Assembly (NCBI GenBank): GCA_963827755.1
Contig: CAWHCQ010000014.1
Span: 1-64,000 of the forward strand
DNA length: 64,000 nucleotides
Direction: 5' to 3'
Source: an uncultured Gammaproteobacteria bacterium
GTDB taxonomy: Bacteria > Pseudomonadota > Gammaproteobacteria > UBA9214
A program made the position numbers and the translations under genes. Every line of letters starts with the position of its first letter. Positions within the stretch are counted from its first letter, which is position 1. Below, piece after piece: positions 136-20,154 of this stretch. The notes beneath the pieces were generated by a model. The model had not been told where the DNA came from, searched no databases, and saw only the letters and a program-made list of their open reading frames with translations.

Positions 136-1677
136 ATGCTTGAAGTGGCGATTGCCTCCGGTTCCCAGCTTGCTGCAGATGCAGGCGCACGCGTGGCACG
201 TGAAGGTGGAAATGCAGTTGATGCTGCCATCGCCGCGTCACTGGTTTCCTGCGTGGTCGAGCCAGGGGTCTGCTCGCTGGCTGCGAGTGGTTTTCTGACC
301 ATCTGGCCACCCGATGCCGCCCCGGTGATGGTGGACGGAGCCGCGGTCATGCCCGGCATGGAACTGCCGAAGAGCCGCTTCGGGCAAGCCACCGCGGAAG
401 TGTTGCTTGAGTATGGCGGTGGCGTGCGCACTACGGTGGGTTACGGCTCGGTGGCGGTTCCCGGTAATCTGGCCGCCTATGAACTAGCATCCGAGCGCTA
501 TGGTAATGTGCCATGGCGCGCGCTGATCGAACCTGCTTGGGAGATAGCGCGCGACGGCTTTCCCCTGTCGGAGGCTTCTTACCACTACCTGCAACTCACG
601 CACAAACCGATCTACGGCTGGAGCGAGCATGGTCTGGGGATATTTTGTGGTGCTGACGGCGAACTCTACAAGCCGGGCAGCACGATCCGCATTGAGCACC
701 TCGACGAAACCCTGCACAGCATAGCCGAGGACGGCGCGGATGTATTCTACCGCGGCGATCTGGCCGCACAGATCACTCGGTATATCGAGGCTCATGGCGG
801 CATTCTTACCCGTCAGGATATGGCAAGCTACAAGGCACGTCTGTTACCGACACTCGATGTGCAGGTGAATGACTGGACAGTGGCAACTGACTCACCGCCG
901 GCACTTGGTGGTGCGGTACTGGCGGCCATGCTGCTGCTGATGGGAGACCGACCTCAGGATATCTGGACGCCGGCAGAACTTGAATATCTGATTCGCGTCC
1001 AGGAGGCAGTGCTGAGCTTCCGCTACGACCACCTTGATGGCAGCGAGGACCTGCCGCGTGATGTACAGGACTTGCTCGAACAGGCTTCAGCGCAGGACTT
1101 ACGCCACTTTCTGTCATCGCCCTCGACCGTGCATGCCTCGGCCGTCGATTCTGCTGGCCTAGCCTGCTCGGTCACGGTGTCGGCGGGCTACGGGTCCGGG
1201 GTGATGCCACCGGGCACCGGCATCTTTATGAACAACAGCCTGGGTGAACTTGAATTGAACAGGCGCGGCCTGCATATGTGGGTTCCGGGCAGCCGCCTGC
1301 CATCCAATATGGCCCCGACCGTGGCACGCCACCGCGACGGCGGGGTGCTGGCTATCGGTTCACCCGGTGCCAGCCGTATTACAACGGCAATTCAGCAAAC
1401 CCTGCTTAATTTCATGCACCTGGGTGCACCACTGCAGGCGGCCGTGGATCATGCGCGGCTGCACGTAGAGGAAGCCGATGGTCATATGCAAGTCGCCTAC
1501 GAGGAGGCATTACCAGTGGATCAGCTGGATGTGCCGCAACGCATGTTTTCCGGCATCTCTATGTATTTTGGTGGCGTGAGTGCGGCGTTGTGGGACCCGC
1601 GGGAGGGCTTTGTTGTGGCTGCGGACCCGCGCCGTGCCGGGGGGACAGCATTCTCCGGCAAAGGGGGCTCTCGTTAG
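136..1677 (+). CDS. ggt: Gamma-glutamyltransferase (glutathione hydrolase-like, Ntn-hydrolase) family protein
   Basis: 513-aa ORF with GGNAVDAAIA, VVEP, SVAVPG, FYRG, catalytic Thr motif STVH, NNSLGE, SNMAPT, GSPGASRI and C-terminal ADPRRAG. No obvious signal peptide. Confidence 0.85.
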   Translation: MLEVAIASGSQLAADAGARVAREGGNAVDAAIAASLVSCVVEPGVCSLAASGFLTIWPPDAAPVMVDGAAVMPGMELPKSRFGQATAEVLLEYGGGVRTTVGYGSVAVPGNLAAYELASERYGNVPWRALIEPAWEIARDGFPLSEASYHYLQLTHKPIYGWSEHGLGIFCGADGELYKPGSTIRIEHLDETLHSIAEDGADVFYRGDLAAQITRYIEAHGGILTRQDMASYKARLLPTLDVQVNDWTVATDSPPALGGAVLAAMLLLMGDRPQDIWTPAELEYLIRVQEAVLSFRYDHLDGSEDLPRDVQDLLEQASAQDLRHFLSSPSTVHASAVDSAGLACSVTVSAGYGSGVMPPGTGIFMNNSLGELELNRRGLHMWVPGSRLPSNMAPTVARHRDGGVLAIGSPGASRITTAIQQTLLNFMHLGAPLQAAVDHARLHVEEADGHMQVAYEEALPVDQLDVPQRMFSGISMYFGGVSAALWDPREGFVVAADPRRAGGTAFSGKGGSR

Positions 1678-2492
1678 CCGCTTTAACGGAATTATAAAAC
1701 GAATGTCGTAGTTTGGCGTGCGCCGTGCAAAGGCGGCGTTTCTCAGTGGGTGCGAATCCCACCCGGCAATGTTGCTCCAGCCGGAAGCAATCGGAGCAGT
1801 CATGGAGGTAACGAAGTGGCTGAAGCCTCTGGTGTAGAGGGTCACTAGGTGACTTGGCGAGTGTGCAGGCCGTAACGTGAGTGAACGCTGAGCAATCCTC
1901 GAAAAGGACGTTGCACAGGCCGACCTGTCCGCCAATGCGGGGAAGGCTGATAGGACTGGGAGAAATGAGCAAGGCAGTGTCCCCAGTCACTGTGCCGGGG
2001 TAGTGGCGACAGCATGTACACAAGAGGGAAACGCACGCAACACGGGAAGCCCGATAGCGTGGTCGGTCGTGGCGACCAACCTGAGGCTGGTGACAGTCAG
2101 ATAGGGCGCTATGGGGTGGCGGAAAGGCCCGTAGTACCGGGGAAGCCGGGTAATGCCGGTGGAGGAAAGGGGCCTTAGTTCAAGACGGGCGCTGAAAGTG
2201 GCAAAGCACGGGAGATTGGGGCAACCCTAGGAAACTCCTGAAATGTGTGCAAGCGCTGCGGAAGGTGCCACATGCTGAAGCGAAGGAAGAACCCGGATTG
2301 CGATCCGGGAAGCGAATGACCACCCAGGTGGTGGCATTGGCGGTTATGTGCAGAACGCTCGGTCGATGTACGCCGGGGTACACGGCCCTGTGCTGTGGTC
2401 GGGTGAACTGCGTATGACCTTTCGTGTGCAAAGGCATGCTGTCTTGTCCGAGAGCCGGATGCGGGAAATCTGCATGTCCGGTTCGATGAGGA

Positions 2493-4428
2493 TTGCGCCT
2501 TGCAAGCGCATGAAATCCAGCAGCCTGAAATGGCTGCCCTGACAAAGCCTAGCCAGCAGTCAGGTACCGAGTCTTGCGTGGTGTCCGGTAACGGCCACTG
2601 CGAAGCGTAGACAGGGAGACTGTAGGCCGAAACGAAAGTGAACGGAAAGATAGCCCCGAAATCGAACGTGGTTGAAGTGGCCGACCTTATTCCTCTATGG
2701 GGAAGGCGGAATTCCAGGATACGCATTGGCGAGTGTTCTGGAGTGCTTCCGGGGTTCGTACCGTCGGCATGCAGTCGAGGGATTTCATGTGAACAAGGGA
2801 GATCCGTCAGGTTCAAGCGGAGCTTGTAGGGTCGGACAAGCTGACAAAGCGAGGAAGATCCGATGGCCTGACGGAAGTCAGACTGGCTGATAGTACTCTG
2901 AGGTCGGGAGAGCCGATCACATGGGGAAGCGGCCAGCAGAAGTTGAATCGTTCTTGGGCAACATGGGCTCCATTCAATGGGAGATTACGGCCCTCTATAC
3001 AAAGAGAGGATAAACCAGTCATGGAAACGGGACTTGAACGAATAGCAGCGAAAGCTCGGAGTGAACCAAAGCAGCGATTTACGTCATTGGCCCATCATGT
3101 CACGCGGGAGCGGGTGTGGGAGAATCTGTGTCAGATTTCAAACCACTCGGCCCCGGGTTGTGATGGCCAGACGGTAGTGGAGGCGAAGGAGGAGTTCGAC
3201 GTATGGATTGAGCCGATGCTTCAATCTGTGCACCGCCGGGGATATCAGGCACCGCCTATCCGGCGGGTCTACATTCCGAAGCCCGGCAAACAGGAGAAAC
3301 GTCCCTTGGGCGTGCCCTGTGTCACCGATCGGGCGCTCCAGCGCAGTACCGCTCAGGTGCTGTCCGCCATCTACGAGCAGGAGTTCTTGTCCTGTTCCTT
3401 TGGTGGTCGGCCCGGGTTAAGTGCCCATCATGCTTTGGCAACCCTGAATGAGGTGATTGCCGGGCGCAAGGTGGGCTGGGTGCTGGAGGCGGATCTGAAG
3501 AACTTCTTTGGCAGTTTAGATCATGGATGGCTACTGCGCTTTGTGGAACACCGAGTCGGAGATCCGCGCGTAATCAGCCTGATACGACGTTGGCTGAAGG
3601 CAGGTATTCTGGAAGATGGAGAATTGCATCCCAACGAAGAGGGGACGCCGCAAGGGGGTTCGATCAGCGTCTTGCTGAGCAACCTGTACCTGCACTATGT
3701 GCTTGACCTGTGGTTTGAGCAAGTGGTCAAGCCGCGTTTAAAGGGTGAGGCCTATTTGGTGCGGTATATTGATGACTTTGTGGTGTGTTTCCAATATCGG
3801 GCGGATGCCCTTCGCATGCAGAATGCCCTGCGCAAGCGACTGGGGAAGTTTGGACTGGAACTGGAACCGACGAAGACAAAACTCGTTGAATTTGGTCGCT
3901 TTGCTCAACGGCATGCGAGCAAGCGAGGGAGAAGGCGCCCGGAGACGATCTACTTTCTGGGTTTTACCCTCTATTGCACGCAAAACCGAAAGGGCAACTT
4001 CAAGGTGGGCTGCGCACCGAGAAGTCTCGGCTTCAGCGTAGCTTGCCAACCTGCGCGACCTGATGCGGCGAATGCGTCATCTGAAGCTTCAGGAACAGGT
4101 CATCAATCTGAACCGGGTCTTGCGTGGTCACTATGCCTACTATGGCATTGCCGGTAACCTGCGTGCCTTGCAGAAAGTGCATCGGTTCGTGATGCGTTAC
4201 TGGCGAAAGATGCTTAGCAGTCGAAGTCGCAAGGGTTATGTGACGTGGGAAGCTTTCCAGGGTATATCAGCGCGGTATCCGTTACAGCAACCAAAGCTGA
4301 GGCTTCCTTATCGGGAGTTTCAGTTACTTGCCGTGCTGTGAAGCAATCTCTGAAGAGCGTAGTGCCGGAAATCGGCACGCTACGTTCTGTGGGAGCCGGA
4401 AGCGGGTGACTGCTTCCGGCGACCCGGT
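2493..4428 (+). mobile_element. Inner group II intron encoding RT/maturase
   Basis: 5' end TTGCG at 2493. EBS1-like TCCTC (2691-2695) is complementary to upstream GAGGA (2488-2492). Domain V GAGCGTAGTGCCGGAAATCGGCACGCTACGTTC at ~4355-4387, then domain VI hairpin CCGGAAGC...GCTTCCGG, ending GACCCGGT at 4428. Confidence 0.85.
3021..4341 (+). CDS. ltrA: Group II intron reverse transcriptase/maturase, no endonuclease domain; frameshifted near 4010-4050
   Basis: Motifs APGCDG, RRVYIPKPGK, RPLGVP, DRALQ, SFGGRPG, ADLKNFF, GTPQGGSISVLLSNLYLH, RYIDD, FLGF. Domain X (LNRVLRGHYAYYG) continues in ORF 4063-4341. Two apparent 1-nt deletions separate the parts; these could be sequence errors or real inactivation. 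Confidence 0.9.
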
Positions 4429-4820
4429 GGATGTGGAAACGGAGTGATGGTTCGGCTATTGAGGCACCGCCAGACGAAAGGGGCGGCAACAGATAGGCTG
4501 AACCTTAGACCACCGCGCCACATCTTTACTCTACCGAAGGTACGCGTTTACTGTTTCAGTCAGCAACCAGGATTCAAGAGATCAGGAACGGCAAGTTTCT
4601 GCTCTAAACAGGACGTTTAGTCGAATCTAATATAAACAATCACTTAATGACAACTGTCGACCCAAATAAGAAGTTCAGCATCTTGAATTGTATGTCTGAG
4701 ATTGCGGCGAAAGCTGACGTTAGCAGAATGATAACGGACTGAGGGCTGGCAATCAGCGGGAATCGCGACGGGGGAGTCAGTGATGCAGCTGTGAGAATGC
4801 GCCCACGACGGCTGGGGGCG

Positions 4821-4886
4821 TGCAGCACCTGTGGTGCGGCCAGCATGGAAGATCTGGTAGTCATCGAGAAGACACTCACGCACCTG
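4821..4886 (+). pseudogene. Possible remnant of an IS91/ISCR-type transposase C-terminus
   Basis: Translates CSTCGAASMEDLVVIEKTLTHL, resembling the CxxCGG...IEDPxVIEKILxHL C-terminal motif of IS91-family transposases. Short and degenerate. Confidence 0.4.
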
Positions 4887-5035
4887 ACTGAAAAATGCCT
4901 ACCCATATTATCCCACTCTTGTTCAAAAGACGGGTACCGCCACACCAAAAGTAAGCGCTTTAGGCGAGCGCGTCTGTAGCAGTTGTTGTCGTTGGACTAG
5001 TATTTTTGCGCTAAATGGTTCACCATTGTTTCGAG

Positions 5036-5761
5036 ATGAGCATTCCAAATTTGTCAAAAACCATTTTAGCCCGAATTGGATTACTAGGCTGTTACACTTG
5101 CCCAATCTGCGGTGAAAGCGGTAGATTTGAAAAATTTTTGGGACGCGAACATGCACGCTGTTGGCACTGCGGCTCTCTTGAGCGCCACCGAGGCCAGTAC
5201 ATTGTGCTTCAGGAATGTTTGAAGAATTTTAGTCCCACAGATTCAGCGGCTATTCAGTTCGCGCCTGATGCGATGACGCCATTTCTTCGCCAGTACTTTC
5301 AAAATTTTAAGACCGCAGATCTTTATCGTGATGACGTTGACCTCAATCTTGATTTGAGGAGTTTGGCGCTTGATGATGAGTCCTATGACTTTTTGTTCGC
5401 CTCTCATGTTATGGAACACGTCGATGATGACATGGCGGCCCTCAATGAAATCTACAGGGTACTAAAGCCGGGCGGATTGGCTATATTAGCGGTTCCCTTT
5501 AGGTCAGGGAAAACTATCGAATACCCGGAGCCAGTTCCTACTGAACATTACCATGTGCGTATGCCAGGGATGGATTATTTTGATCGGTATAGAGAAGTAT
5601 TTGACGCAGTGACCTTGTATAGCTCTGACGACTTTCCAAATCGTATTCAGCCCTACGTATATGAAGACAGAACAGTGTTTCCTAGTGAGACCTCGCCCTA
5701 CCAACTGCCTGAGATAGGAAGCAAATTTCTTGAGATTGTGCCATGTTGCAGTAAACAATAG
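5036..5761 (+). CDS. Class I SAM-dependent methyltransferase-like protein with N-terminal Cys4 motif
   Basis: CPICG...CWHCGSLERHR, then FAPD, DLNLDLRSL, YDFLFASHVMEHVDDD, EIYRVLKPGG. More AT-rich than the flanking core genes. Start could be 5015 or 5036. Confidence 0.75.
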   Translation: MSIPNLSKTILARIGLLGCYTCPICGESGRFEKFLGREHARCWHCGSLERHRGQYIVLQECLKNFSPTDSAAIQFAPDAMTPFLRQYFQNFKTADLYRDDVDLNLDLRSLALDDESYDFLFASHVMEHVDDDMAALNEIYRVLKPGGLAILAVPFRSGKTIEYPEPVPTEHYHVRMPGMDYFDRYREVFDAVTLYSSDDFPNRIQPYVYEDRTVFPSETSPYQLPEIGSKFLEIVPCCSKQ

Positions 5762-6524
5762 AGAACTGTCGAAGCAGCGGCTGACAACTAACCCCAAAAA
5801 TCCCGCCTTAGTCAGTAGTTTCTATTTCTTAAGTTCGTGACCTGCTGCAAAATGATCGGCTTCAATCTACGTAGAACATTGATTTCCTTAGAACTCGTGC
5901 AGCTAACGTTGAACTCAATCAACTCACCCACACCAATGCTCATCGCATAGCCCGATATCTTACTGTACCTGAACGTCCGTTTTCAGTATTGCACGACGTT
6001 CAGGCCGGTATCCAGGAATGACAGGAGGTGGCCGACTCCTGTCTTCATCGGGCATTGCAACAATTGATTAGGGGCGAGCCAGGAACGGCAGGTTACCGAC
6101 CGTAACCGGAACTACATGAAATCCTTATATAAGATTTCGCTAACAGGCGGGAGTCGACCCAAGTCGGACCTTTAGTCTCTGCTTATATAATCAGCGGCTT
6201 AAAGGCAGATATTGACACGGATCCCGGTCATACAGTTTTACTCAAGTTTCAATAATCACATAAACGTCAAAAAACTACACAGAGTAGGTGATTTACTGCT
6301 GAGTTTTATTACGGATTGGTTAGCGTTCAGTGCCGATTTGTATTGAAAGCGCGTGACTTATGTTTAATATAAATAGTCTGATATTAGAGACAGAGATTTT
6401 ACATACACATTTCATTCGGCAGACATATTTAAATTAGCATCTATCCACAGTGACGCCGGGCAGAATCGTGATGAAGCCAGTATACGGTTCAGTTCTTATC
6501 ACCTAACTGCAAGAGGAAATCACG

Positions 6525-6878
6525 ATGAGTTTACGGCATACAATCAGCTACACCTGCGTTCTGTTGTTTACCGGAAAACTGTTTGGAAGCAACCTGGCAG
6601 CCAAGCAGGTTGCGGCTGAACACCAGGGCATGACGGGCGAGGACGAGCATGGTCACGGTGGCGGCTATCAAGGCAAGATCAGCAAATCGCTGACAAAGGA
6701 AGAACGACTGGCGCCGCCAAACGACATCTGCAAAGGTCTTAAGGCGGTTTCATTGATGATGTATGTCCGAGTTTGGCTGCCGGCTCAACCGATCGAGGCA
6801 TGTCATACACTGAGTGACCTCGTGCTGTACACAGAGCTAGCAGCCCAGGCACAAAACAGACAAATCATCTGCCCATGA
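6525..6878 (+). CDS. Small hypothetical protein or gene remnant
   Basis: 117-aa ORF preceded by an AGAGG RBS-like sequence, with a signal-peptide-like N-terminus and a His/Gly-rich patch. No recognisable domain. Confidence 0.3.
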   Translation: MSLRHTISYTCVLLFTGKLFGSNLAAKQVAAEHQGMTGEDEHGHGGGYQGKISKSLTKEERLAPPNDICKGLKAVSLMMYVRVWLPAQPIEACHTLSDLVLYTELAAQAQNRQIICP

Positions 6879-9427
6879 CACCCTTGTCCCTGGTCAAATC
6901 AGGCTGGTTCAGAATCACCTCTGTCATCGTTATTCTGTGCCTTGTCGTGCTGCTCGGTACGCCGCTTCTTGCCAGGTACCTGGCGCAACAATGGCTGCTG
7001 GAGAATGGCGGCGAGCAGGTCCGCTTTGAAGACATCGATTTTAACCTCTTTACCGGCAATCTGGTGCTGGAAGATCTCGAGGTGAAGGTTGATGAGGAAA
7101 CCACGCTGTCTTTTGATTATGTGGGTTTGGATCTGGCGTGGTGGCCCCTGCTGCGCCGGCAAATCGACGTGCAATCTGTGCAGTTGACCGGCTTCTATCT
7201 GGTTTTCGACAACCGGGAGCCGGAGGCGCGGCGGATTGGCGGCATTCGATTGCCCGGTGCCGCTCCTGACGGCGAACCCCCGACAAAAGCGCCGAGCGCC
7301 TGGCTGTCCGGTATCCAGACGTTGACCCTGCAGGACTTCCATCTCCTGATCCGGGACCGTAAGCTCGAACTGGATGTCGTCATGGACAGCCTGCGCCTCA
7401 CCAGGATGGCGCAATGGACACCGGAACAAGCGGCCATGCTCGAACTCGAGGGCAGCATCAATGATGCACCGGTTCGTGTGAATGGCCACCTGGCACCGTT
7501 TGCAAGCCAGCCCCGCTACGATCTGGAACTGTCGGTTAACAAGTTGCAGCTGGGCGCATTCGAGAAACTTGCTGCACCCATGATCGATCAGCTGTCCGGC
7601 CTGCTGTCCTATGCCGGCGAGCTGGTGCTGGAACAATCGGATGCCACGCTTACATTAAGCCACGCCGGCAAGACCGTGGTCGAGTCATTGCGCCTGGCCA
7701 TGAGCGAAACGGGGCTCGACACATCCATCGGCCAGTTTTCTCATAACGGTAAGCTGGCGTTCGAACAGTCCGGCGAGAACATTTCGCTTGAGCAGGACGG
7801 AGCCTTCAGCCTTGGTACCCTGGACCTCAGCGTCCGGCAGCCGGCCCTTGATGTTCAGAACGGCAAACTGGAGTTGACGGCGCGTCTCAAGTACTCCGAT
7901 TCCCCTGCCGGCGCCGAAATGCGCCTCGCTTCTGACCTTACCCTGGAAAACCTCGATGTCAGAGCGCGTGAGCGCAAAGTCAGCCTGGTCAGCGCCGAGG
8001 CATTGAGGATAGAGGAGCTCCTGTTCCAGGCCGTTGACCAGCTTTCGATCAAGACGATCAGCTCAGAGCAGATCCGTGTAGGCAAAGTGTCGGACGAGGA
8101 CGCAGAAAAACTGCAACCGCTTGCGCGCAGCGACAAGCTGCAGATTGAGGGGGTGTCGCGGGCCGGGAACCTGGTCGCTATCGACAGCGTGGCGTATGAG
8201 GGTTTCCATAACCGTATCGTTCGAGACAAAGATGGCAATTTGGATGTCGTGCTCTTTATCGACATGATCGAGAATATCAATGCCTCGCCTGCAACCACCA
8301 AACAAACTGATCAGGATGCGCTGAAAAAGGCGAGTGAGGAAGAGCAGGCGGAACCCGTCGACCTGGTGATCGGGAGCATCCGGGCTTCGGAGGGGAGCAG
8401 CGTCACCTTCGTCGATGACAGCGTAAAGCCGCCCTTTGCCTCGACCGTGACATTCAAGGAAATCTCGCTCGAGCAACTCGATACCCGTAAACCGGAGCAG
8501 GATAGCCCGTTGCAGCTGGAGGGAGCGATCGGCAAGCACACCAGGCTTTCGCTAAGTGGCGATGTGAAACCTTTCCTCAAGCCAGTGAGCATGAACCTGT
8601 CCGGACAAATACAGGCCATGGATCTGCCCGCGCTCTCCTCCTATACCTGGGAGAGCCTGGGCCTGATGTTGGACAGTGGCACGCTGGATGCCGATCTGAA
8701 GCTTGCCAGTAAGGACGAGGTCCTGGACGGCAAGGTAGACCTGCTGTTGCACCAGCTCAAGCTGGGCAAGGTCGAAAGCCAGTCCGGTCTGCAAAGCAAG
8801 ATACCAGTGCCGATGGATACCGCCCTGAATACCCTGCGCGACAAGAACAATACCATCAAGCTGACTATTCCCGTCGAGGGAAATATGGCGGATCCGAAGT
8901 TCGATGTCAGCGATGCCATCAACCAGGTTATGGCAAAAGCCCTCAAGGCAGGAGCGCTGGGTTATCTTAAGCATGCCCTGCAGCCCTATGGTGCAATAAT
9001 AACCGTAGCCCAGTATGCCGGCGAAGCCGCCACCAAGGTGCGGCTGAATCCCCTCGAATTCGAGGCAGGTCAGGCGACGTTGACCGCGACCGGCGAGGAG
9101 TACCTGGCGAAGGTCGCGAAAGTTATGCAGGAACGTCCTAAAATTGCTATCAAACTCTGTGGCATTACCGTGCAGCAGGATCAGTTGTTTTTTCAGCAGC
9201 AACAGCAGCAGGCTGCGGTTGCCGATAAATCCACCAGACAGTCACCTGCCCAACCTCCGGCAGTGGACGAGCAGAAACTCACCGATCTGGCCGTGGAGCG
9301 CGCGACTGTCGTCAAGGACTACCTGGTCGAGCGGCACCAGATATCGGCCAGCCGTTTGGTTGGCTGTCGGCCAATGAACGAAACCGACAAGCCAGACACG
9401 AAACCACGCACTGACCTGCTTATCTGA
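6875..9427 (+). CDS. DUF748 (AsmA-like) domain envelope protein with C-terminal OmpA-like region
   Basis: 850 aa. N-terminal TM helix, DFNLFTG motif, repeated beta-rich segments, LRDKNNTIKLTIPVEGNMADPKFDV, C-terminal LAVERATVVKDYLVE. Confidence 0.7.
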   Translation: MTPLSLVKSGWFRITSVIVILCLVVLLGTPLLARYLAQQWLLENGGEQVRFEDIDFNLFTGNLVLEDLEVKVDEETTLSFDYVGLDLAWWPLLRRQIDVQSVQLTGFYLVFDNREPEARRIGGIRLPGAAPDGEPPTKAPSAWLSGIQTLTLQDFHLLIRDRKLELDVVMDSLRLTRMAQWTPEQAAMLELEGSINDAPVRVNGHLAPFASQPRYDLELSVNKLQLGAFEKLAAPMIDQLSGLLSYAGELVLEQSDATLTLSHAGKTVVESLRLAMSETGLDTSIGQFSHNGKLAFEQSGENISLEQDGAFSLGTLDLSVRQPALDVQNGKLELTARLKYSDSPAGAEMRLASDLTLENLDVRARERKVSLVSAEALRIEELLFQAVDQLSIKTISSEQIRVGKVSDEDAEKLQPLARSDKLQIEGVSRAGNLVAIDSVAYEGFHNRIVRDKDGNLDVVLFIDMIENINASPATTKQTDQDALKKASEEEQAEPVDLVIGSIRASEGSSVTFVDDSVKPPFASTVTFKEISLEQLDTRKPEQDSPLQLEGAIGKHTRLSLSGDVKPFLKPVSMNLSGQIQAMDLPALSSYTWESLGLMLDSGTLDADLKLASKDEVLDGKVDLLLHQLKLGKVESQSGLQSKIPVPMDTALNTLRDKNNTIKLTIPVEGNMADPKFDVSDAINQVMAKALKAGALGYLKHALQPYGAIITVAQYAGEAATKVRLNPLEFEAGQATLTATGEEYLAKVAKVMQERPKIAIKLCGITVQQDQLFFQQQQQQAAVADKSTRQSPAQPPAVDEQKLTDLAVERATVVKDYLVERHQISASRLVGCRPMNETDKPDTKPRTDLLI

Positions 9428-9924
9428 TTGTCCTGTGTGTAAGCTGATAGGATTCTGTGAAGGTGTTGCTGGTGTAAAGTGCGAAGGAAGAAAGTAATTC
9501 GGTCGCTCGTTTCTGATTCGCGAATGGCAGGAGCTTGCCCGGTAAACGAAGTTCCAGCTGCAATGCATAAAGCCGGAAATTGTGCGCTCCTGTCCTGCAC
9601 AAGAAGAAGGGAAATGTCACTTTCTGGCCGAACTGAGACCTTTAAGCCTTAACCTGCTGTAATTTGGAGGCAAGGTCTCGAATCGACCCGACCCGGTAGT
9701 TCATCGTTTTAGGTCGAATGTCTGAAAGTATATCGGACATTAGCAGAATGCTAATATATTGAGCTTTGCTAAATTGCAGGAAGCGCGAGAGGGGTCAATG
9801 GTGCAGCCGTGGGAATGCGCTCGCGACAGCCATTATTCGGCTGGATTGTCTCGAGATGCTTGGGTTATGTTTCCTGTTAAGCGGCCTTGATGTGCGACAT
9901 CGCGGTAGTTTATATATACGACGC

Positions 9925-11029
9925 ATGAGCAATAAAATTATAACTGGTTTAATCGTGGCGCTGGTCTTGTCGATGGTTGCCACACCCGCCGTTGCCTATG
10001 AAATCAATGAGCAACTCTCGATCGGCGGCATCCTGGCCGGTGCCATCCAGTGCCAGGACCTGTCCGACACGCCGGGCTCGGGTAATAGCTGTAAGGGGGC
10101 AGTGCCCTTCCAGCCCGAGTTGAGTTTCCGGCCGACCGGGGCCGACGAGGTGTTTTTCAAACTCGGTGTCGCGGCCGGCAATGGGCTCAATAGAAACTCA
10201 CCGTTAGCGATAGCCCCCTGGGCGGCTGACCTGCAGGACGACGTCAAGGACATCAGCGGGCGCAACCGTAATTACCTGTTAACCGCCTGGTACAAACACA
10301 CCTTCACTGTCGGTGACGACCAGAGCCTCGGCACTACCCTGGGCATTATCGATGCCACCGACTATCTCGATGAAAACGCCTATGCCAATGACGAATACAC
10401 CCAGTTCATGAATGAGGTGCTGACTAACGGGTCGAATGTGTTCCTGCCGTCCTATGATTCCGGTGTTGCGCTGGAATGGTTTGCTGGCCCCTGGTCATTG
10501 CGCGGTGTGTTGATGGATGTTGGCGAAAACGATGATGGCAACCACTATACGTTCTATGGTTTGCAGGCCGGCTATAGTGTCAGTAACAGGCTGGGTGCCG
10601 GTAATTACCGGGTCATCATCACCGCTAGCAGCCAGGACTTCCTCAATCCGGCGGGTACCCACTGGAGGACCGCACCGCTGCGCTGGTTTCCGTTGACCAG
10701 GAATTTGGCAGGGTTGTCGGTGGCTGGATCGGGTTGGCTGGCAGACCGATGAGGCGGCGGTCGACTACGGGACGATTTATTCGGGTGGCGTTGATATCAA
10801 GGGTAGCGGCTGGGGCCGTGATGATGACAATATCGGAGTGGGTCTTGCGTACCTGAACGGAGGCAGTCTCAATATCGACAAATCCCGGGTGGCCGAGGCC
10901 TATTATCGCTGGCAGCTGGGTGAGTTCTTCGGGCTGACTGCAGACATTCAGTATCAGGATGATGACTATAGAGCCGGTCAGGGACCAGGAGGATGGACTT
11001 ACGGCCTGCGCGCCGCGGTCGAGTTCTGA
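9925..11029 (+). CDS. Outer-membrane porin (OprB/carbohydrate-porin-like), frameshifted near 10660 and 10735
   Basis: Signal peptide ending AVA-YE; IDATDYLDENAYANDEYTQFMN; C-terminal EAYYRWQL...TADIQY...YGLRAAVEF with terminal Phe. Reassembled from ORFs 9766-10752 and 10838-11029. Confidence 0.7.
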
Positions 11030-11126
11030 TGCGTGACTGTCAGCTCTGGCATGTAGCCGTGTGGACCGGGGCAAGTCTGGATAATTTACAGGACCAGCCT
11101 TCGTTAAAGAGCCTGTGCCAAATGAT

Positions 11127-11246
11127 TCACTTCCGTACATCGTCAAACCGCATCGACAGGTCGGTGGCCTGGATGTTCTTGGTCTGGCCACCCACGGAAA
11201 TATAATTCACGCCAGTCAAAGCCGCCGCGTGCAGGTTGTCCGGGTT
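11127..11246 (-). pseudogene. nadC: 3' fragment of nicotinate-nucleotide pyrophosphorylase
   Basis: The minus strand translates NPDNLHAAALTGVNYISVGGQTKNIQATDLSMRFDDVRK*, matching the NadC C-terminus (TGVDYISVGALTK...DLSMRF). The rest of the gene is absent. Confidence 0.7.
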
Positions 11247-11751
11247 GCTGCGGGTTAATTGCTATAGTTGAATAACCGCTATTAAACGGACGTTCACTGG
11301 AATTTGGTCAAAGACGTATTTTGGCTGATACTGTTGAAAAATTCTTGCTGGCTGCTTGCGCGATATTTTTCAAGGAAATATCGTGCACGAGAGTGCCCGA
11401 CTGATAAAGGGGACAGATTTATTTTCTGTGGGAATGACCGGTTCTGGCCGAAAGTGTGAGTACAGCCTGCTGAGCCTGAACGACCGCTTATGTTATGCAA
11501 AGTTGTCGTCCAGAAAAGTCACATCAAGGGCGTTTTTGGGCGGCAGGTTGACATTCAGCCACCCCGCATCAGTGCGATTTCTGTGTCCCAGGAACGGCAA
11601 CTCTGAGGTTGAAATCAGACCTTCGCACTTGCAGCCTTGACGACATTCGGTAATTTTGGTTGGGAAGGGAGAAAAGCGGCGATTGAGAATTGGATTGATC
11701 TCTTGCAAGTGAAGTATTCAATATTCTTGTACGTAGGATGTTTTACGGAAC

Positions 11752-12735
11752 CTATCCAAGCTTCCTCGCCAAGTCCTCTGCCTTAAGGTGTGTATAGCGA
11801 CGCAGCATACGCAGATCCTTGTGCCCGGTGATGCTGGCGACTTCCATAATATTCAGTCCTTTCTCGAACAGCCGGGTGGTGGCCTCATGGCGCAGGTCGT
11901 GGAACCGGAGGTTTTCGATGCAGGCGCGGCGTACTGCGCGGATATAGGCGCGTTTAATGGCCTCTGTGGTGACGCCGGTGAAGGCTTGCCCGTGCAGGCT
12001 GCGGGGCAGGGTGCGCAGCACCCTGACGGCGGTGGTGGACAGCGGCACGGTCCGGGCCTCGCCGTTCTTGGTGTCGGGCAAGTGGGCAGTGCGGCGGTTG
12101 AGATCGATGTGCTCCCAGCGCAGGCGGATCAGCTCCCCCTGGCGCATGGCGGTCTCCAGTGCCAGTTGTACGATGGGCAGAAGCCAGGGATTACGTGCTT
12201 CCCCGCAGGCAGCCAGCAGTCGGGTTTCTTCACCGGCCTGCAGTCGCCGGTCTCGCGGTCGGTTGTCGGCAGGCAGCCTGATATCGCGGACCGGGTTGTG
12301 TACGTAGATGCCCCATTCCTTGCGGGCGACCTCGAACACGTGGCCCAGCAGCACCAGGTCCCGCTTGACGGTGGACGGAGTGACATTGCGCAGTCGTTCG
12401 TCCCGGAAGCGGGCAATGTCCATCCCGCGAATGCCGGCGACGTATCGCCGGGCCAGCGGCAGGCGCATCAGGGCGCGCAGGCGGTTGGTTTCGGATGCCG
12501 CGCTTTTCTTCAGGGGCGTGACCTCGGCCAGATAGCGTTCCAGCAGTACCTTGAGGGTGGTGGATTCGGCCTCGGCGCGGGAGACGAACACGCCCTTGTC
12601 CATTTCGACCTCAATAGCGCGTGCCCACTGCTCAGCCAGTGCACGGGTTTCAAAGGTCTTGGTTTGCAGGGGTTGGCCCTTTTTCCGGACCTGTGCCTGC
12701 CACTGGTAAGCGCCGCGTTTTCGGAAGGTTGCCAC
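11752..12735 (-). CDS. Tyrosine recombinase/integrase (Rci/phage-integrase-like)
   Basis: Catalytic motifs ETAMRQGEL (R), DTKNG (K), FHDLRH (HxxR), TGH and RRYTHL (Y). N-terminal arm-binding region ATFRKRG..WQAQVR. Likely start GTG at 12735 (the ORF is open to 12771). Lies just downstream of the tRNA 3' end. Confidence 0.9.
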   Translation of the reverse strand: MATFRKRGAYQWQAQVRKKGQPLQTKTFETRALAEQWARAIEVEMDKGVFVSRAEAESTTLKVLLERYLAEVTPLKKSAASETNRLRALMRLPLARRYVAGIRGMDIARFRDERLRNVTPSTVKRDLVLLGHVFEVARKEWGIYVHNPVRDIRLPADNRPRDRRLQAGEETRLLAACGEARNPWLLPIVQLALETAMRQGELIRLRWEHIDLNRRTAHLPDTKNGEARTVPLSTTAVRVLRTLPRSLHGQAFTGVTTEAIKRAYIRAVRRACIENLRFHDLRHEATTRLFEKGLNIMEVASITGHKDLRMLRRYTHLKAEDLARKLG

Positions 12736-12761
12736 AGTTGCACTCCGTTCATTCGCGAACG

Positions 12762-12830
12762 AGTGTGACAACAGTGTGACAAATAATCAGTTAGTAACCC
12801 ATACAGGGGGTGTCGTGGTTTCTAACTGAT
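12762..12830. promoter_or_regulatory. Putative integrase arm-type sites and hairpin between tRNA and integrase
   Basis: Direct repeat AGTGTGACAA at 12762-12771 and 12773-12782. Inverted repeat AATCAGTTAG (12785-12794) ... CTAACTGATT (12822-12831). Confidence 0.45.
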
Positions 12831-12839
12831 TGATTTGAT

Positions 12840-12914
12840 TGGTGGGCGATACTGGGATTGAACCAGTGACCCCTGCCGTGTGAAGGCAGTGCTCTCCCGC
12901 TGAGCTAATCGCCC
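12840..12914 (-). tRNA. tRNA-Val (anticodon CAC)
   Basis: Reverse complement GGGCGATTAGCTCAGCGGGAGAGCACTGCCTT-CAC-ACGGCAGGGGTCACTGGTTCAATCCCAGTATCGCCCACCA: 75 nt, folds as a cloverleaf, with TTCAA T-loop and encoded CCA. Confidence 0.97.
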
Positions 12915-12932
12915 TTGATTAACTTCACCGGA

Positions 12933-12961
12933 AGGGTATGGCTTTGTGGCGGGTGCGTCAA
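12933..12961 (-). promoter_or_regulatory. Sigma70-like promoter of tRNA-Val
   Basis: Minus strand TTGACG (12961-12956), 17-nt spacer, TACCCT (12938-12933), 18 nt upstream of the tRNA. Confidence 0.55.
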
Positions 12962-13012
12962 ACGCTGGCCGGGTTGAGCCCCGGGCCTGCCCGGGTCACC
13001 CGGGGCCGGTTC

Positions 13013-13039
13013 TAATGCTTCCCTGATTTCTGTCGATAT
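13013..13039 (+). promoter_or_regulatory. Sigma28 (FliA)-like promoter of the export operon
   Basis: TAAT-N15-GTCGATAT, compared with consensus TAAA-N15-GCCGATAA. Confidence 0.45.
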
Positions 13040-13143
13040 TCAATGGACTACCCGGAATAACATGTCTGGCTGGCAGGCGTGCGGGACGGGTAGTGCAGCC
13101 AAGCAGATGTTTTTGGTCTGCATTTTGGCAAGGACGGAGGGTG

Positions 13144-14904
13144 ATGGTCTTGGAAAAACTGGCGCAATCATGGCTCGAGCAGCAATGCAACCTGATTAAC
13201 GGCGCATGTCGCGGGTTGGTCATGCTGAGCGTGCAGGACAAGGGCCGAATGAGCGATGTGGCGCACTGGCCGGCAGAGGCAAGTGGTTCGCCCCTGTTGC
13301 TCGCTGCAGCAAGGAAGGCGGTGATGCAGCGTGGACCGGTGATCGAGCAGGGCGATGCGGCACAGTCCGCCGGCCGGCAAAATGTCCATGTCATCGCCTA
13401 TCCGCTGGTCAGCAAGGAAAGGGCGCTGGGCGTGATTGCAGTCGAGGTCGAGGCGCAGTCCGATACGCAGCATAAAGAGGTAATGAGTCTGTTGCGTGCC
13501 GGCAGCGTATTTTTCGAAATGCTGCTTGAACATCAGCATGACAAGCACCGGGAGCGATTGACGCGCATCCTGGAACTGGTTTCGCTGACACTTGACCAGC
13601 CGCATTTTCAGAGTGCGGCAACCTCGCTGGCAACCCGGCTGGCGAATGAGTTGTCCTGCAGTCGTGTCAGTATCGGCTTCATGCGCGGACGGTTTGTCAC
13701 CGTGCGTGCGTTATCGCACAGTGCCAAACAGGGCGTGAAGACCAGCCTGCTGCGTACCATCTCCGCTGCCATGGAGGAGGCGATCGATCAGGACACAACG
13801 CTCGTCTATCCCGGCAGTGAACATATCAATATTGCCCATCGCAAGCTGACCGAGCAAAACCAGGTAACCTCTGTTTGCACCATTCCGCTGGTGAATAACG
13901 GCAGCATAACCGGCGCCATAACATTTGAACGCAACAACCGGATCCCGTTCGATACGGAAACCGTGGATCTGTATACGCACGTGGCCAACCTGATCGGACC
14001 GATCCTGGAGCTGAAACGCAGCAATGACACATGGCCGATCGTGCGCCTGGTCATATCTGTTGGCGACTTTGTGAAAAAGCTGTTTGGTCCGCAACGTGCG
14101 CTGCTGAAGGCCGCCACGCTATCGCTGCTGTTGTTAGCCATTTATATGAGCGTGGCGACTGCGCCCTACCGGGTTAGTGCAAAGGCAGCGCTGGAAGGCA
14201 GTATTCAGCGTGCCGTGGTTGCGCCGATCGATGGATTTATCCTCGATTCGGATGTACGTGCCGGGGATGTCGTCCAGGCCGGGCAGCTGATGGGGACGCT
14301 TGATGACCGTGAACTGAAGCTGGAGCAGCAGAAGCTGATCAGTGAAAAGGCGCGTCATTCGCGTGAATACCGCAGTGCCATGGCAGGGCATGAACGTGCG
14401 CAAAGCTCAATTCTCGATGCGCGCATCAGCCAGGCCGATGCCCGCCTGCAATTGGTTAACAAGCAGCTCGAACGCATGCAAATCGTGTCGCCGCTCACCG
14501 GTGTGGTGGTGACAGGTGATCTCTCCCAGTCACTCGGGTCCCCGGTCAGCCGCGGAGATATACTCTTCGAGGTCGCGCCGCTGGAAGACTATCGTCTGGT
14601 TCTAAGCATCGATGAACGCGATATGCCGTATATTGCCGATGCCCAGAAAGGCGAGCTGAAACTTTCAGGCCTGCCCGGGGATGCACCGGGCTTCACCGTC
14701 AGCCGCATCACGCCGGTATCCGAGTCGGGCGACGGTGCCAACTACTACCGGGTTGAGGCAAAGCTGGATGATCCGCCGGTATTGCTGCGTCCCGGCATGG
14801 AAGGTGTCGGCAAGATCGAGATCGGTGAGCGCAGGCTGATGTGGATCTGGACTCACAGGATGACTAACTGGCTGAAGCTGAAACTATGGGCCTGGTGGCT
14901 GTGA
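13144..14904 (+). CDS. GAF-domain HlyD/membrane-fusion (periplasmic adaptor) protein
   Basis: Two GAF-like regions (VIAYPLV...LGVIAVE; AAMEEAIDQD...VCTIPLV...GAITFER), one TM helix, then an MFP hybrid/hairpin (VVAPIDGFI...VRAGDVV...IVSPLTGVVVTGDL...LRPGMEGVGKI). GGAGG RBS at 13136-13140. Confidence 0.8.
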   Translation: MVLEKLAQSWLEQQCNLINGACRGLVMLSVQDKGRMSDVAHWPAEASGSPLLLAAARKAVMQRGPVIEQGDAAQSAGRQNVHVIAYPLVSKERALGVIAVEVEAQSDTQHKEVMSLLRAGSVFFEMLLEHQHDKHRERLTRILELVSLTLDQPHFQSAATSLATRLANELSCSRVSIGFMRGRFVTVRALSHSAKQGVKTSLLRTISAAMEEAIDQDTTLVYPGSEHINIAHRKLTEQNQVTSVCTIPLVNNGSITGAITFERNNRIPFDTETVDLYTHVANLIGPILELKRSNDTWPIVRLVISVGDFVKKLFGPQRALLKAATLSLLLLAIYMSVATAPYRVSAKAALEGSIQRAVVAPIDGFILDSDVRAGDVVQAGQLMGTLDDRELKLEQQKLISEKARHSREYRSAMAGHERAQSSILDARISQADARLQLVNKQLERMQIVSPLTGVVVTGDLSQSLGSPVSRGDILFEVAPLEDYRLVLSIDERDMPYIADAQKGELKLSGLPGDAPGFTVSRITPVSESGDGANYYRVEAKLDDPPVLLRPGMEGVGKIEIGERRLMWIWTHRMTNWLKLKLWAWWL

Positions 14905-14905
14905 A

Positions 14906-17053
14906 ATGACGCAGTCGATGTACAGCCAGTACTGGTACCGTGTTGCCGATGTGCGGCCGCGAATCCGCGATCATGTCCAGTTGCATCGCCATTATTACCG
15001 TGGCCGCCGCAGCTACATGCTGCAGGATGAATCCAGCGGTGCGTTTCACAGCTTCAGCCCGGAAGCCTACGTGCTCATCGGCCAGATGGATGGCAAGCGC
15101 ACGATAGACGAAATCTGGGAAACCACGCTGGATAAGCTGGGCGAGGATGCGCCTGGCCAGGAAGACACGCTGCACCTGCTGGGGCAGTTGCATGCGGCGG
15201 ACATACTGCAGTGCAACACTACGCCTGATATTCTCGAGGTGTTCGAACGCTACCGCCACAAGCGGCGCCAGGACTGGAAGCAGCGCCTCACCAACCCGAT
15301 GTTCCTGCGCCTGCCGCTGTGGGACCCGGACAAGTTCCTCACCCGCTGGCTGCCGCTGGTACGGCCGATATTCAGCTGGGGCGGACTAGCGCTGTGGACA
15401 TTGGTCGTGCTGCTGGGGACCGTATATGCCGGTGTCTACTGGGAGCCGATTACCGCGGGTATTGTCGACAAGGTATTGAACCCCTGGAACCTGGCAATCA
15501 TGGTGGCTACCTATCCGCTGGTGAAGCTGCTGCATGAGTTTGGCCATGCGTTTGCCACCCGCGTGTGGGGCGGTGAAGTCCACGAGATGGGCATCATGTT
15601 CCTGGTGCTTATGCCAATTCCCTATGTCGATGCCACCGCATCGGCCGGCTTTCAGCAGAAGGGCCGGCGTTTCCTGGTAAGCGCCGCCGGCATGATGGTG
15701 GAACTGTTCCTGGCAGCGCTCGCGCTGTTTGTATGGATCAACGTCGAGACCGGCATCGTCAGTGCTATCGCCTATAACATCATGCTCATCGGCAGTATTT
15801 CCACAGTGTTCTTCAACGGCAATCCGCTGTTGCGCTTCGACGGCTATTACATGCTGGCAGATGCCATCGAGATTCCCAACCTCAGCGTGCGCGCAAAGCG
15901 TTACCTCAGCTACCTGTCGATGCGCTATCTATACGGCATGGAAGAGGTGGCTTCACCGGTATCGGCACATGGCGAGGCAGCCTGGTTTGCATTCTACGGG
16001 GTCGCCTCCTTTGCCTATCGCATGATGATCATGGCGGTGATTATTCTCTACATCGCAGGCAAGTTCTTTTTCGTCGGGGTGCTGCTGGCAATCTGGGCAG
16101 TCACACTGCAAATCGTCCTGCCGCTGGTGCGCCATGTCAAATTTCTTCTCAACGATGGACGCTTGCAGCAGCAGCGCGCGCGTGCACTCGGTGTTACGGG
16201 TGCCGGGCTGGTGCTGTTGCTGGTGATGTTATTTGCAGTGCCGGCGCCGCTCTGGACCATGGCCGAAGGCGTGGTGTGGCTGCCGGAGAAGTCGCGTATC
16301 CGGGCCGGGACCGACTGCTTTGTAACGGCGGTGCTGGCGCAAACGGATGCCAGCGTAAAAAGTGGTGATCCCGTGATGACGTGTGAAGACCCGCTGTTGT
16401 CAGCAGAGGCTATGGCGCTGGATGCGCGTCTGCAGGAGCTGCGCGCAGAACATACGCTGGCTATGACGGAAGCGCCTGTCGAGGCGCTGAGCATCATGCA
16501 GGATATACAGACCGTGAATCAGCAACTCGACGAATCACGCCGCCAACTGGGTGAACTGGTATTGCGCAGTACATCCGATGGTCGGCTGGTGATACCGATG
16601 TCAACGGATCTCGAGGGCCGCTTTGTGCGTCGCGGTGCGACGCTGGCCTATGTCATCAACGATGCGGCTAGCCGCGCGCGGGTGGTTGTGACGCAGGCCG
16701 ATATCGGCCTGGTGAGGCAGCGCACCACGGGCGTCGGGCTGCGCATGGCAGGAAAGCCGGAACGGACGATTGCCGCCAGTGTGTACCGCGAGGTACCGGC
16801 CGCCTCGGATGAATTGCCAAGCAAGGCACTGGGTACCGAAGGCGGCGGCATGATACCGGTCGATCCGGCCGATGAATCGGGAGTACGCGCACTGGCAACC
16901 CTGTTCCAGTTCGAGCTGGAACTGCAGGAGGATCTGCCTGCGCAACTTTACGGTCAGCGCGTCTATGTGCGTTTTGATCATGGCACGGAGCCGCTCGGGA
17001 TCCAGTGGCAACGCTTATTGCGGCAACTATTCATGCGCAAGTTCGGAGTCTGA
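14906..17053 (+). CDS. PqqD/RRE-like domain + M50 (site-2 protease) peptidase + MFP fusion protein
   Basis: N-terminal ~100 aa resemble PqqD/RRE (YMLQD...MDGKRTIDEIW...LLGQLHAADIL). HEFGH zinc motif and NPLLRFDGYY, several TM helices, C-terminal MFP-like hairpin/barrel. Confidence 0.8.
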   Translation: MTQSMYSQYWYRVADVRPRIRDHVQLHRHYYRGRRSYMLQDESSGAFHSFSPEAYVLIGQMDGKRTIDEIWETTLDKLGEDAPGQEDTLHLLGQLHAADILQCNTTPDILEVFERYRHKRRQDWKQRLTNPMFLRLPLWDPDKFLTRWLPLVRPIFSWGGLALWTLVVLLGTVYAGVYWEPITAGIVDKVLNPWNLAIMVATYPLVKLLHEFGHAFATRVWGGEVHEMGIMFLVLMPIPYVDATASAGFQQKGRRFLVSAAGMMVELFLAALALFVWINVETGIVSAIAYNIMLIGSISTVFFNGNPLLRFDGYYMLADAIEIPNLSVRAKRYLSYLSMRYLYGMEEVASPVSAHGEAAWFAFYGVASFAYRMMIMAVIILYIAGKFFFVGVLLAIWAVTLQIVLPLVRHVKFLLNDGRLQQQRARALGVTGAGLVLLLVMLFAVPAPLWTMAEGVVWLPEKSRIRAGTDCFVTAVLAQTDASVKSGDPVMTCEDPLLSAEAMALDARLQELRAEHTLAMTEAPVEALSIMQDIQTVNQQLDESRRQLGELVLRSTSDGRLVIPMSTDLEGRFVRRGATLAYVINDAASRARVVVTQADIGLVRQRTTGVGLRMAGKPERTIAASVYREVPAASDELPSKALGTEGGGMIPVDPADESGVRALATLFQFELELQEDLPAQLYGQRVYVRFDHGTEPLGIQWQRLLRQLFMRKFGV

Positions 17054-17056
17054 CAG

Positions 17057-19060: not shown

Positions 19061-19091
19061 GGCCTAACGCTTACTTGAAAGAACTGAAATT

Positions 19092-19967: not shown

Positions 19968-20041
19968 CACCTCACCCGCACCTCACCAGCACCCCACTGC
20001 TAATCTAGCACCATTATGGTGCGGTATATTCCTGTTCACCT

Positions 20042-20068
20042 TCAAGTATTTCAATATTTTGCCGATTT
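20042..20068 (+). promoter_or_regulatory. Sigma28 (FliA)-like promoter of the giant-protein gene
   Basis: TCAA(G)-N15-GCCGATTT, 86 nt upstream of ATG 20155. Confidence 0.5.
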
Positions 20069-20154
20069 CTGTTCTGTGATGTTGCGCCTGGTTTTTTCAT
20101 AAAGCTGCGACACCCGGCGCTATGTGCCGGAAACAGGTTGTTCTTGGCAAGGAA

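Follow-up and report, generated by a model that had tools for sequence, protein, structure and literature searches.

The closest layout analogue of the locus described here is found in the dif (pdif) modules of Acinetobacter plasmids, which are built on XerC/XerD sites; short asymmetric sites of pdif systems alternate in orientation and thereby force C and D modules to alternate (PMC13141974). Parts of the layout are also shared with integrons and clusters of attC sites lacking an integron integrase (CALINs), with repetitive extragenic palindromes (REP), bacterial interspersed mosaic elements (BIME) and REP-associated tyrosine transposases (RAYT), and with the shufflons and FimB/FimE invertases. 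Here we analyzed 64,000 nt of contig C14 of an uncultured Gammaproteobacteria bacterium (the window, meaning the whole of this stretch) and considered as the array region positions 1702 to ~11470, where clusters of repeated units lie among unrelated cargo genes between ggt and a tRNA-Val integrase. We give a probability of about 0.55 to the reading, drawn from sequence comparison, that 1702-~11470 is a chromosomal array of exchangeable modules joined at asymmetric sites of ~35-40 bp, that this array is an orphan, and that its cognate enzyme would be a 214-aa recombinase. A broader proposal has, in our judgment, slightly less than an even chance: that this is a widespread, undescribed module-exchange system in which a stripped-down tyrosine recombinase of ~210 residues acts on the conserved centre of asymmetric sites of ~38 bp and builds chromosomal arrays of cargo alternating with a small non-coding module. 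In a genus of sediment sulfur-oxidizers it would have left arrays without the recombinase at several positions of the core genome, with modules still differing between sister species and a group II intron lineage specialized on the crossover core.

Like pdif modules, the array has alternating inverted sites, unrelated cargo, the same module in different contexts and hybrid sites, and the specialist element here is a group II intron. It departs from pdif in that the sites are ~35-40 bp with variable inner arms and chromosomal, every other module is a conserved non-coding stretch of ~125 nt, and a dedicated 214-aa recombinase probably takes the place of XerC/XerD. The dif site of the host is canonical (AGTTCGTATAATGTATATTATGTTAAAT, C34:42936, minus strand), and Xer/dif was rejected as the array site by an eye comparison, in which the units were unlike the host dif and hence unlike 28-bp sites with XerC and XerD arms. 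With integrons and CALINs the array shares mostly one- or two-gene, unrelated units, most of them in one orientation, and the existence of orphan arrays; unlike them, it has no IntI, no attI/Pc and no attC, its crossover is central and not at the 3' G/TT, and a conserved single-strand hairpin is missing. Integrons, too, have a lineage of group II introns that targets the recombination site, the IIC-attC introns (PMC3001079). Mosaic clusters of palindrome-like units after genes, targeted by site-specific mobile elements, recall REP/BIME and RAYT, but the array has a low copy number, few and variable loci, no RAYT nearby, and units that delimit exchangeable cargo. As with shufflons and FimB/FimE invertases, the candidate recombinase is small (FimB/E size), the sites are inversely oriented, and multiple sites would allow shuffling; the segments here, however, are whole unrelated genes that also move between loci, with no shared reading frame or promoter switch. 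Among the passages returned by a full-text literature search, only the dif-module and integron literature matched and no published description of such a system was found; the system is apparently undescribed.

The genome of the window (G000) is a 2.85-Mb metagenome bin of 52 contigs, 91.8% complete and 5.4% contaminated, and its closest relative, G012, is 96-98% identical to it across shared DNA. Repeats were detected by nhmmer with a model of a composite repeat, called E, and with a hidden Markov model (HMM) of the units. Contigs from four public sediment-metagenome runs of four studies were compared as well; these possibly include the source populations of G000 and G012, and their evidence is therefore supporting and not fully independent. 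A previous, sequence-only reading had described four clusters of hairpin repeats of ~30 nt, all in one orientation, as possible short recombination or capture sites. The repeats are where it placed them, the units it quoted being at 6017-6047, 9613-9642, 9672-9701, and 11433-11462; the fourth cluster (11429-11624) is degenerate. The units proved not to be independent but to be the conserved cores of E, a composite repeat with modules adding up to 165-215 nt (short form ~165 nt, long form ~213 nt). In order, E comprises a TGGCCGA-core unit, a variable stretch, a CAGGAACGGCA unit, a palindrome round TATATAA, and a CGACCC-core unit between CTAAACG and CGTTYAG; the long form adds a terminal unit ending GACGTTAGC. 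Each site is asymmetric and ~35-40 bp long: a centre of 7-9 bp is conserved (TGGCCGA, or CGACCC in the other orientation), as are the outer flanks (GAAYGNC; CTAAACG / CGTTYAG), and the inner arms vary. The claim of a single orientation did not hold: TGGCCGA-type and CGACCC-type units alternate, the former being roughly the reverse complement of the latter. A plain reversal was tried and rejected in its strict form; it is true at the motif level, and the HMM of the CGACCC unit misses TGGCCGA units on the opposite strand.

The repeat goes well beyond chance. nhmmer E values reach 9.3e-47. Across 27.6 kb of array loci, the site pattern AATGWC-N4-7-KGG-N1-2-CG has 10 occurrences (3.6 per 10 kb), which makes it ~19x denser there than in any of four controls: the complete genome, integrase loci totaling 1.04 Mb, 119 kb from true integron arrays, and 472 kb of metagenome DNA with no relation to the array, each with 0.17-0.19 per 10 kb. 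G000 carries 15 E copies at seven loci (C14, four copies each on C36 and C4, C21, C35, C28, and C12), and the unit HMM run over all 2.85 Mb gave 15 matches, all within these loci and no others. The sequence-only reading was right that units are limited to the array within the window, where the C14 matches of the whole-genome nhmmer search are confined to 4534-9741 and the rest is devoid of E copies; the family as such is not restricted to this locus. Fifteen of 24 other genomes of the genus have E, and none was found in 16 other genera sampled from the class. Relatives carry arrays of 4-8 same-orientation E copies spaced 1-3 kb apart, with ordinary accessory genes in between (TerC, cytochromes c, esterases, MFS, sulfotransferase, CheR, and HlyIII). 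A metagenome scan with the 16-mer GCCAGGAACGGCAGGT matched 117 stretches, and with E in none of the 80 loci examined these are chance matches; a viral-contig scan with an 18-mer of E gave no match.

The single-strand hairpin character ascribed to the units was not borne out. RNAalifold on 32 fairly complete E copies gave no consensus pairs, and a hairpin model taken from the best copy of the window had 54.5% of cells paired against 52.2% in shuffled sequences, with some excess of double changes (64 versus 48 in shuffles, equaled by 2 of 500 shuffles). A single large hairpin across E was likewise rejected (fold z-scores -1.7 and -1.45). The "loops" of E and its outer flanks are conserved, and the "stems" are variable and often mismatched to each other; since the stems are not conserved, double-stranded recombination sites with hybrid arms are the better reading of the units.

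Next, we compared G000 with G012 for the ends of shared segments. Seven of 13 informative ends fall in cores (C14:6155, C14:9633, C36:1943, C36:8178, C4:93143, C4:90753, and C28:68672), and E copy 1 provides two further core junctions with G012. The segment 6155-9633 has unrelated flanks in the two genomes, left of CGACCC and right of TGGCCGAAC. On C36, 6 kb are shared at 97-98% identity from TGGCCGA core to TGGCCGA core, and upstream of this segment the G000 and G012 genes are unrelated, with no blastn or tblastx match. At every core junction the two arms of the unit part company, one staying with the DNA on the left and the other with that on the right; the 3' arm accompanies the downstream module. 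Contig C67 of G012 unites in one array three segments that are held by three separate arrays in G000 (C28, C4, and C14). The public data behave in the same manner: a contig of 4338 nt matches exactly 6155-9633 with both ends running into unlike DNA, loose contig ends cluster at 6029 (5 contigs) and 6160-6162 (6, 4, 8, and 7 contigs), and joints from 6152/6154 to 4656/4658 and from 4533 to 6032 connect halves of different E copies at cores. In all four runs, coverage of 4400-4653 (the intron 3' end) and 5924-6177 (E) was 10-100x deeper than that of cargo, as expected of multi-copy elements common to many community members. Cargo 1 and cargo 3 were uncovered in runs X1, X3, and X7, which is not taken as evidence of absence; nor were word shares below 0.2 in the run search given weight for a habitat beyond the labels that the runs carry. 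The ggt side of the array (1-1700) is 86% identical to G012 and the tRNA side (12915-22000) 97%, indicating that its two flanks have different histories; in relatives the ggt-to-tRNA-Val interval is not conserved, ggt and the tRNA being on separate contigs with other neighbors. We concluded that cargo breakpoints coincide with the repeats, in these junctions and in the public contig ends and joints. The notion of a gene-acquisition platform therefore survives, with a motif beyond chance, no REP-like scatter, and breakpoints at the repeats.

Since shared DNA starts and stops in the site centre, recombinant sites hold one arm from each parent; since opposite-orientation sites alternate, two kinds of module alternate. 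The first kind is a non-coding "E body" of ~125 nt and the second is cargo, namely a methyltransferase, a DUF748 protein with a small open reading frame (ORF), and a frameshifted secreted protein. In the proposed mechanism the units would act as double-strand sites, the partners exchanging DNA at the conserved centre, where they must match; exchange would be site-specific recombination by a tyrosine recombinase, with cleavage presumably at the edges of this centre.

The first unit is split between 1702 and 4535, as had been noted, and the interruption is a group II intron (1718-4534). Ribozyme domains, a reverse transcriptase (RT)/maturase, and one homing site for all copies, as in mobile group II introns, are present, and the RT frame is broken in the window copy. 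The first ribozyme unit matches RF02003 at 1744-1880 with a D5-like match at 2450-2503, and the second matches RF02005 at 2528-2762 with D5/D6 at 4353-4428. The region appears as a short ORF-less ribozyme unit in tandem with one bearing the frameshifted RT; no GUGYG start was found for the second unit, and the region may be a tandem insertion or a single unusual intron. All four intron insertions (three in G000, one in G012) are in a core, and in G000 the 5' end follows ...TTTGGC, ...TTGGGT, or ...CCGGGT. The empty site for the C36 copy is seen in G012, with GCTAAACGACGGGTGTCG and ACCCAAGTGGGACGTTCAG on the two sides of the insertion point, and the intron copy of G012 itself occupies another unit. 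Judged from these positions, the intron homes to the site core, and the same positions imply that a TGGCCGA unit is roughly a CGACCC unit on the opposite strand. An intron lineage of this sort would parasitize the system by homing to the site centre.

An intact gene for a 214-aa tyrosine recombinase lies inside an E array of the related genome G017. The protein consists of hardly anything beyond a catalytic domain; among relatives of solved structure, XerH and XerD are the closest (E ~1e-5, residues 42-210), and it has a weak NCBIfam match to NF007371 (E 4e-5). Within the genus, 11 of 37 genomes carry the gene, which is frequently broken; across the class, 13 of 401 genomes have it, representing 12 of 320 genera, and later comparisons left out two of the 13 (G177 and G343). 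More than 8000 metagenome relatives were found at E <= 1e-10, and among the 120 matches listed most are 209-212 aa and on short contigs. E pieces border the gene in three of five full-length loci of the genus (L159-L161). At two loci from two other genera (L291 and L296) it lies between inverted units with identical outer arms, reading AATGTCTGCTT-YGGGTCG, and AATGTCCGCTT, after which comes TGGGTCG on one side and C-TGGCCGG on the other; the layout of L291 is unit(+), recombinase gene, unit(-), ORF, unit(+). L291 and L296 have AATGTC-N5-TKGGSYCG flanking the gene, L161 and L298 have it on one side only, and 7 of 14 loci show nothing clear; the strict site pattern gave 7 matches in the 14 loci against 0.7 expected from shuffles. 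This protein is the best candidate for the enzyme of the array, on the strength of these gene contexts. The E body would fill the place of the recombinase module of L291/L296 and may be a recombinase-less derivative of it. With no such recombinase gene in the assembly, the array is an orphan, and such an array would be either static and decaying, or serviced in trans once the enzyme arrives by transfer.

Several points weigh against the module-exchange reading. The evidence throughout is a comparison of static sequences, with no recombination directly observed, and the remaining six of the 13 informative G000/G012 junctions fall outside cores, which are themselves too short to resolve the exact crossover point. 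The strict pattern is on both sides of the recombinase gene in only 2 of 14 loci, and the other matches are weak (E 0.004-0.8). None of the four repeat-rich genomes tested (G000, G012, G022, and G006) has the gene, the best G000 match being a 313-aa Xer-like protein of 32% identity; G000 and its relatives are metagenome bins, so that missing genes prove little. Genome G023 has the recombinase and E was not found there. It is also unusual for a tyrosine recombinase to have binding elements as variable as the inner arms.

The features of the window are listed in Table 1. The left end of the array, 24 nt past the ggt stop, stands as first described, and all intact cargo ORFs are indeed on the plus strand. 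A stretch of ~110 nt is shared beyond E copies 1 and 3 (4720-4830 and 9740-9870) and begins TTAGCAGAATG; within it, a 40-nt block is 80% identical between 4773-4812 and 9791-9830, and parts recur on C30, C18, C21, and C3. A piece of ~105 nt (11140-11247) is kept at 82-87% in G006, G016, and G017 separately from the rest of cargo 3 and may be the end of a minus-strand gene.

Table 1. Coordinates of the array, its cargo and its neighbors in the window.
Feature	Position	Strand	Evidence or remark
ggt, gamma-glutamyltransferase, left neighbor of the array	136-1677	+	TIGR00066 E 3.5e-75
Site unit, 5' half (AATGTC-N7-TGGC; AATGTCGTAGTTTGGC), severed by intron	1702-1717	+	Begins 24 nt past ggt stop; 3' half from 4535
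Group II intron region within unit core	1718-4534	+	Rfam RF02003, RF02005 (E 1e-39, 1e-22, 1.5e-6)
RT/maturase ORF, frameshift-split	2943-4341	+	TIGR04416 E 6e-85; PF08388
Composite repeat E copy 1, long form, opening with 3' half-unit CGAAGGTACGCG	4535-4724	+	nhmmer E 6.8e-45
CGACCC-type unit of E copy 1	4640-4681, core 4657-4665	+	Unit HMM E 4.7e-8
Cargo 1: class I S-adenosylmethionine-dependent methyltransferase; low-GC segment (44-48%)	5015-5761	+	PF08241 E 2e-12
Perfect 9-bp inverted repeat CTGAACGTC...GACGTTCAG; outer unit flanks, no core	5968-6003	+	Weak reverse-strand HMM match 6128-5971, E 6e-4
Composite repeat E copy 2, short form	6012-6176	+	nhmmer E 9.3e-47; unit HMM E 6.4e-10
Units of E copy 2	TGGCCGA-type 6017-6047 (core 6029-6035); middle 6080-6112; CGACCC-type 6136-6175 (core 6154-6162)		
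Cargo module 2, core-to-core	6155-9633	+	96% identity to G012:C67:3173-6633, both ends in cores
Partial E inside cargo module 2	6163-6237	+	nhmmer E 1e-9
117-aa ORF of cargo module 2	6525-6878	+	
DUF748/OmpA-like protein of cargo module 2	6875-9427	+	PF05359 E 1e-75
Composite repeat E copy 3	9574-9741	+	nhmmer E 9.6e-19; unit HMM E 1.7e-5
Units of E copy 3	TGGCCGA-type 9613-9642 (core 9625-9631); CGACCC-type 9672-9707 (core 9683-9691)		
Cargo 3: secreted protein, two frames (9766-10752, 10838-11029), probably frameshifted	9766-11029	+	No Pfam match; 87% DNA identity in G006:C359
Last unit: 5' half and TGGCCGA core, then unrelated sequence (array end)	11429-11470	+	nhmmer E 6.3e-6; 24/24 nt identical to C36:4252-4275
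Weak middle-unit remnant (CAGGAACGGCA...)	11576-11624	+	nhmmer E 0.0012; direct-repeat family D2
Phage-type tyrosine integrase of tRNA-Val island	11752-12771	-	PF00589 E 1.7e-30
tRNA-Val(CAC), integration target of island	12840-12914	-	

We then weighed other explanations of the repeats and breakpoints. E could be an intergenic repeat, selfish or structural, resembling REP/BIME or a miniature inverted-repeat transposable element (MITE), with breakpoints arising by homologous or illegitimate recombination and no dedicated enzyme. E is indeed a BIME-like mosaic of palindrome-like units at gene 3' ends, the E body bears inverted ends of its own (CGACTCCAGTCTT... / ...GGCGGGAGTCG), and some joints lie in longer shared stretches, such as that from 6079 to 4583, where 11 letters fit both sides. 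Y1 transposase-like genes are present in 33 of 37 genomes of the genus; they are, however, equally common in genomes lacking E, and the four Y1_Tnp genes of G000 (C3, C17, C13, and C11) have no unit nearby. Merely 15 copies at seven loci, with none elsewhere in 2.85 Mb, do not fit such a repeat, and the breakpoints gather on cores of 7-9 nt, too short for RecA-type exchange, with one arm swapped and the other kept. This explanation appears unlikely to us.

The group II intron could itself drive the rearrangements, if copies in different units recombined and later loss of the intron left junctions at the homing site. Its insertion point shares the cores with the breakpoints, it is multi-copy in G000 and abundant in the public runs (depth 169-1118 in the 4400-4653 bin), and the public contig with the joint from 4533 to 6032 links its 3' end to a different E type. 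But introns are rarely lost from DNA with precision, and the conserved cores, the flanks and the alternating orientation would remain unexplained, as would a recombinase gene between such units in genera where E was not found. We consider an intron-driven origin quite improbable.

The units could also be short, divergent attC sites, and the arrays CALINs of the integron integrase of the genus. The outer flanks CTAAAC...GTTTAG differ by one mismatch from the R''/R' consensus of attC, RYYYAAC/GTTRRRY. Of 37 genomes of the genus, 18 have an IntI above cut-off; G000 holds a single intI, internally deleted (C40:95560-96120); the remnant keeps ~110 N-terminal and ~60 C-terminal aa and has lost the middle, and upstream of it are cassette-like small ORFs, including a GFA-like protein and a BrnT-like toxin. 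The group IIC-attC introns are a known parallel (PMC3001079). Set against this, the true intI-adjacent arrays of the genus have classical attC sites of ~60 nt (ATAACAA...CGTTAT), and the E model found nothing at E <= 1 in eight loci (seven intI-adjacent stretches of relatives and the G000 remnant). IntI presence does not track E across genomes, the crossover is in the site centre and not at G/TT, and a conserved hairpin is missing. An attC origin is highly unlikely. The sequence-only reading, which had set the units apart from attC sites and seen no IntI-specific insertion in the neighboring recombinase, is supported on this point: that recombinase is not IntI (TIGR02249 45 bits versus a cut-off of 265).

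That reading had further linked the units to the neighboring tRNA-Val tyrosine recombinase (11752-12771), which would capture and excise cargo at them. The two do adjoin, the array ending ~130-280 nt from the integrase stop (~130 nt for the last cluster, as first given), and by eye the tRNA 3' end on the plus strand, TGGGCGA, is one letter off the TGGCCGA core. The E model was run on 79 loci with integrase homologs (1.04 Mb, some 83-93% identical) and gave no convincing match and two weak ones (E 1e-3 and 5e-3), and no integrase of this kind accompanies the E arrays on C4 and C36. Contig C15 (11.6 kb), probably from a co-binned sister strain, has a second tRNA-Val and integrase (95% aa identity; 86-92% DNA identity to the window) with unrelated cargo: AbiE-like nucleotidyltransferase genes directly follow the integrase stop, and there are no repeats in the 2.3 kb examined past it. 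G012 carries the tRNA-Val without an integrase. Of the features of an island, the integrase adjoins the tRNA 3' end and the content varies by strain; no second copy of the tRNA 3' end was found as a direct repeat in the 64-kb window at <=3 mismatches, although the contig starts at ggt and the far end may lie outside. Relatives of the integrase are from uncultured sulfur-oxidizing sediment gammaproteobacteria (Ectothiorhodospiraceae, Thiohalobacter, Thiogranum, and Acidiferrobacteraceae). The proposed link is largely refuted and retains hardly any probability; the integrase is probably a neighbor from a separate genomic island and not the enzyme of the array. A function of E as RNA (3'-UTR stabilizer, terminator, or small RNA), which its position downstream of co-oriented genes and good local stems in some copies (e.g., 6021-6043) might suggest, is scarcely credible given no Rfam match at E <= 1, the lack of consensus pairs, the fold z-scores cited above, and breakpoints it leaves unexplained.

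If the module-exchange reading is true, cassette shuffling in bacterial chromosomes would extend beyond integrons and Xer/dif modules to a third system active in common sediment bacteria, one that uses sites of its own and a minimal recombinase. The intron would be the second example of a group II intron specialized on a recombination site, and a very small site-specific recombinase with short sites would be a possible tool. With more than 8000 metagenome relatives of the recombinase, the system may be widespread. It would account for strain-level variation of gene content at fixed chromosomal spots.

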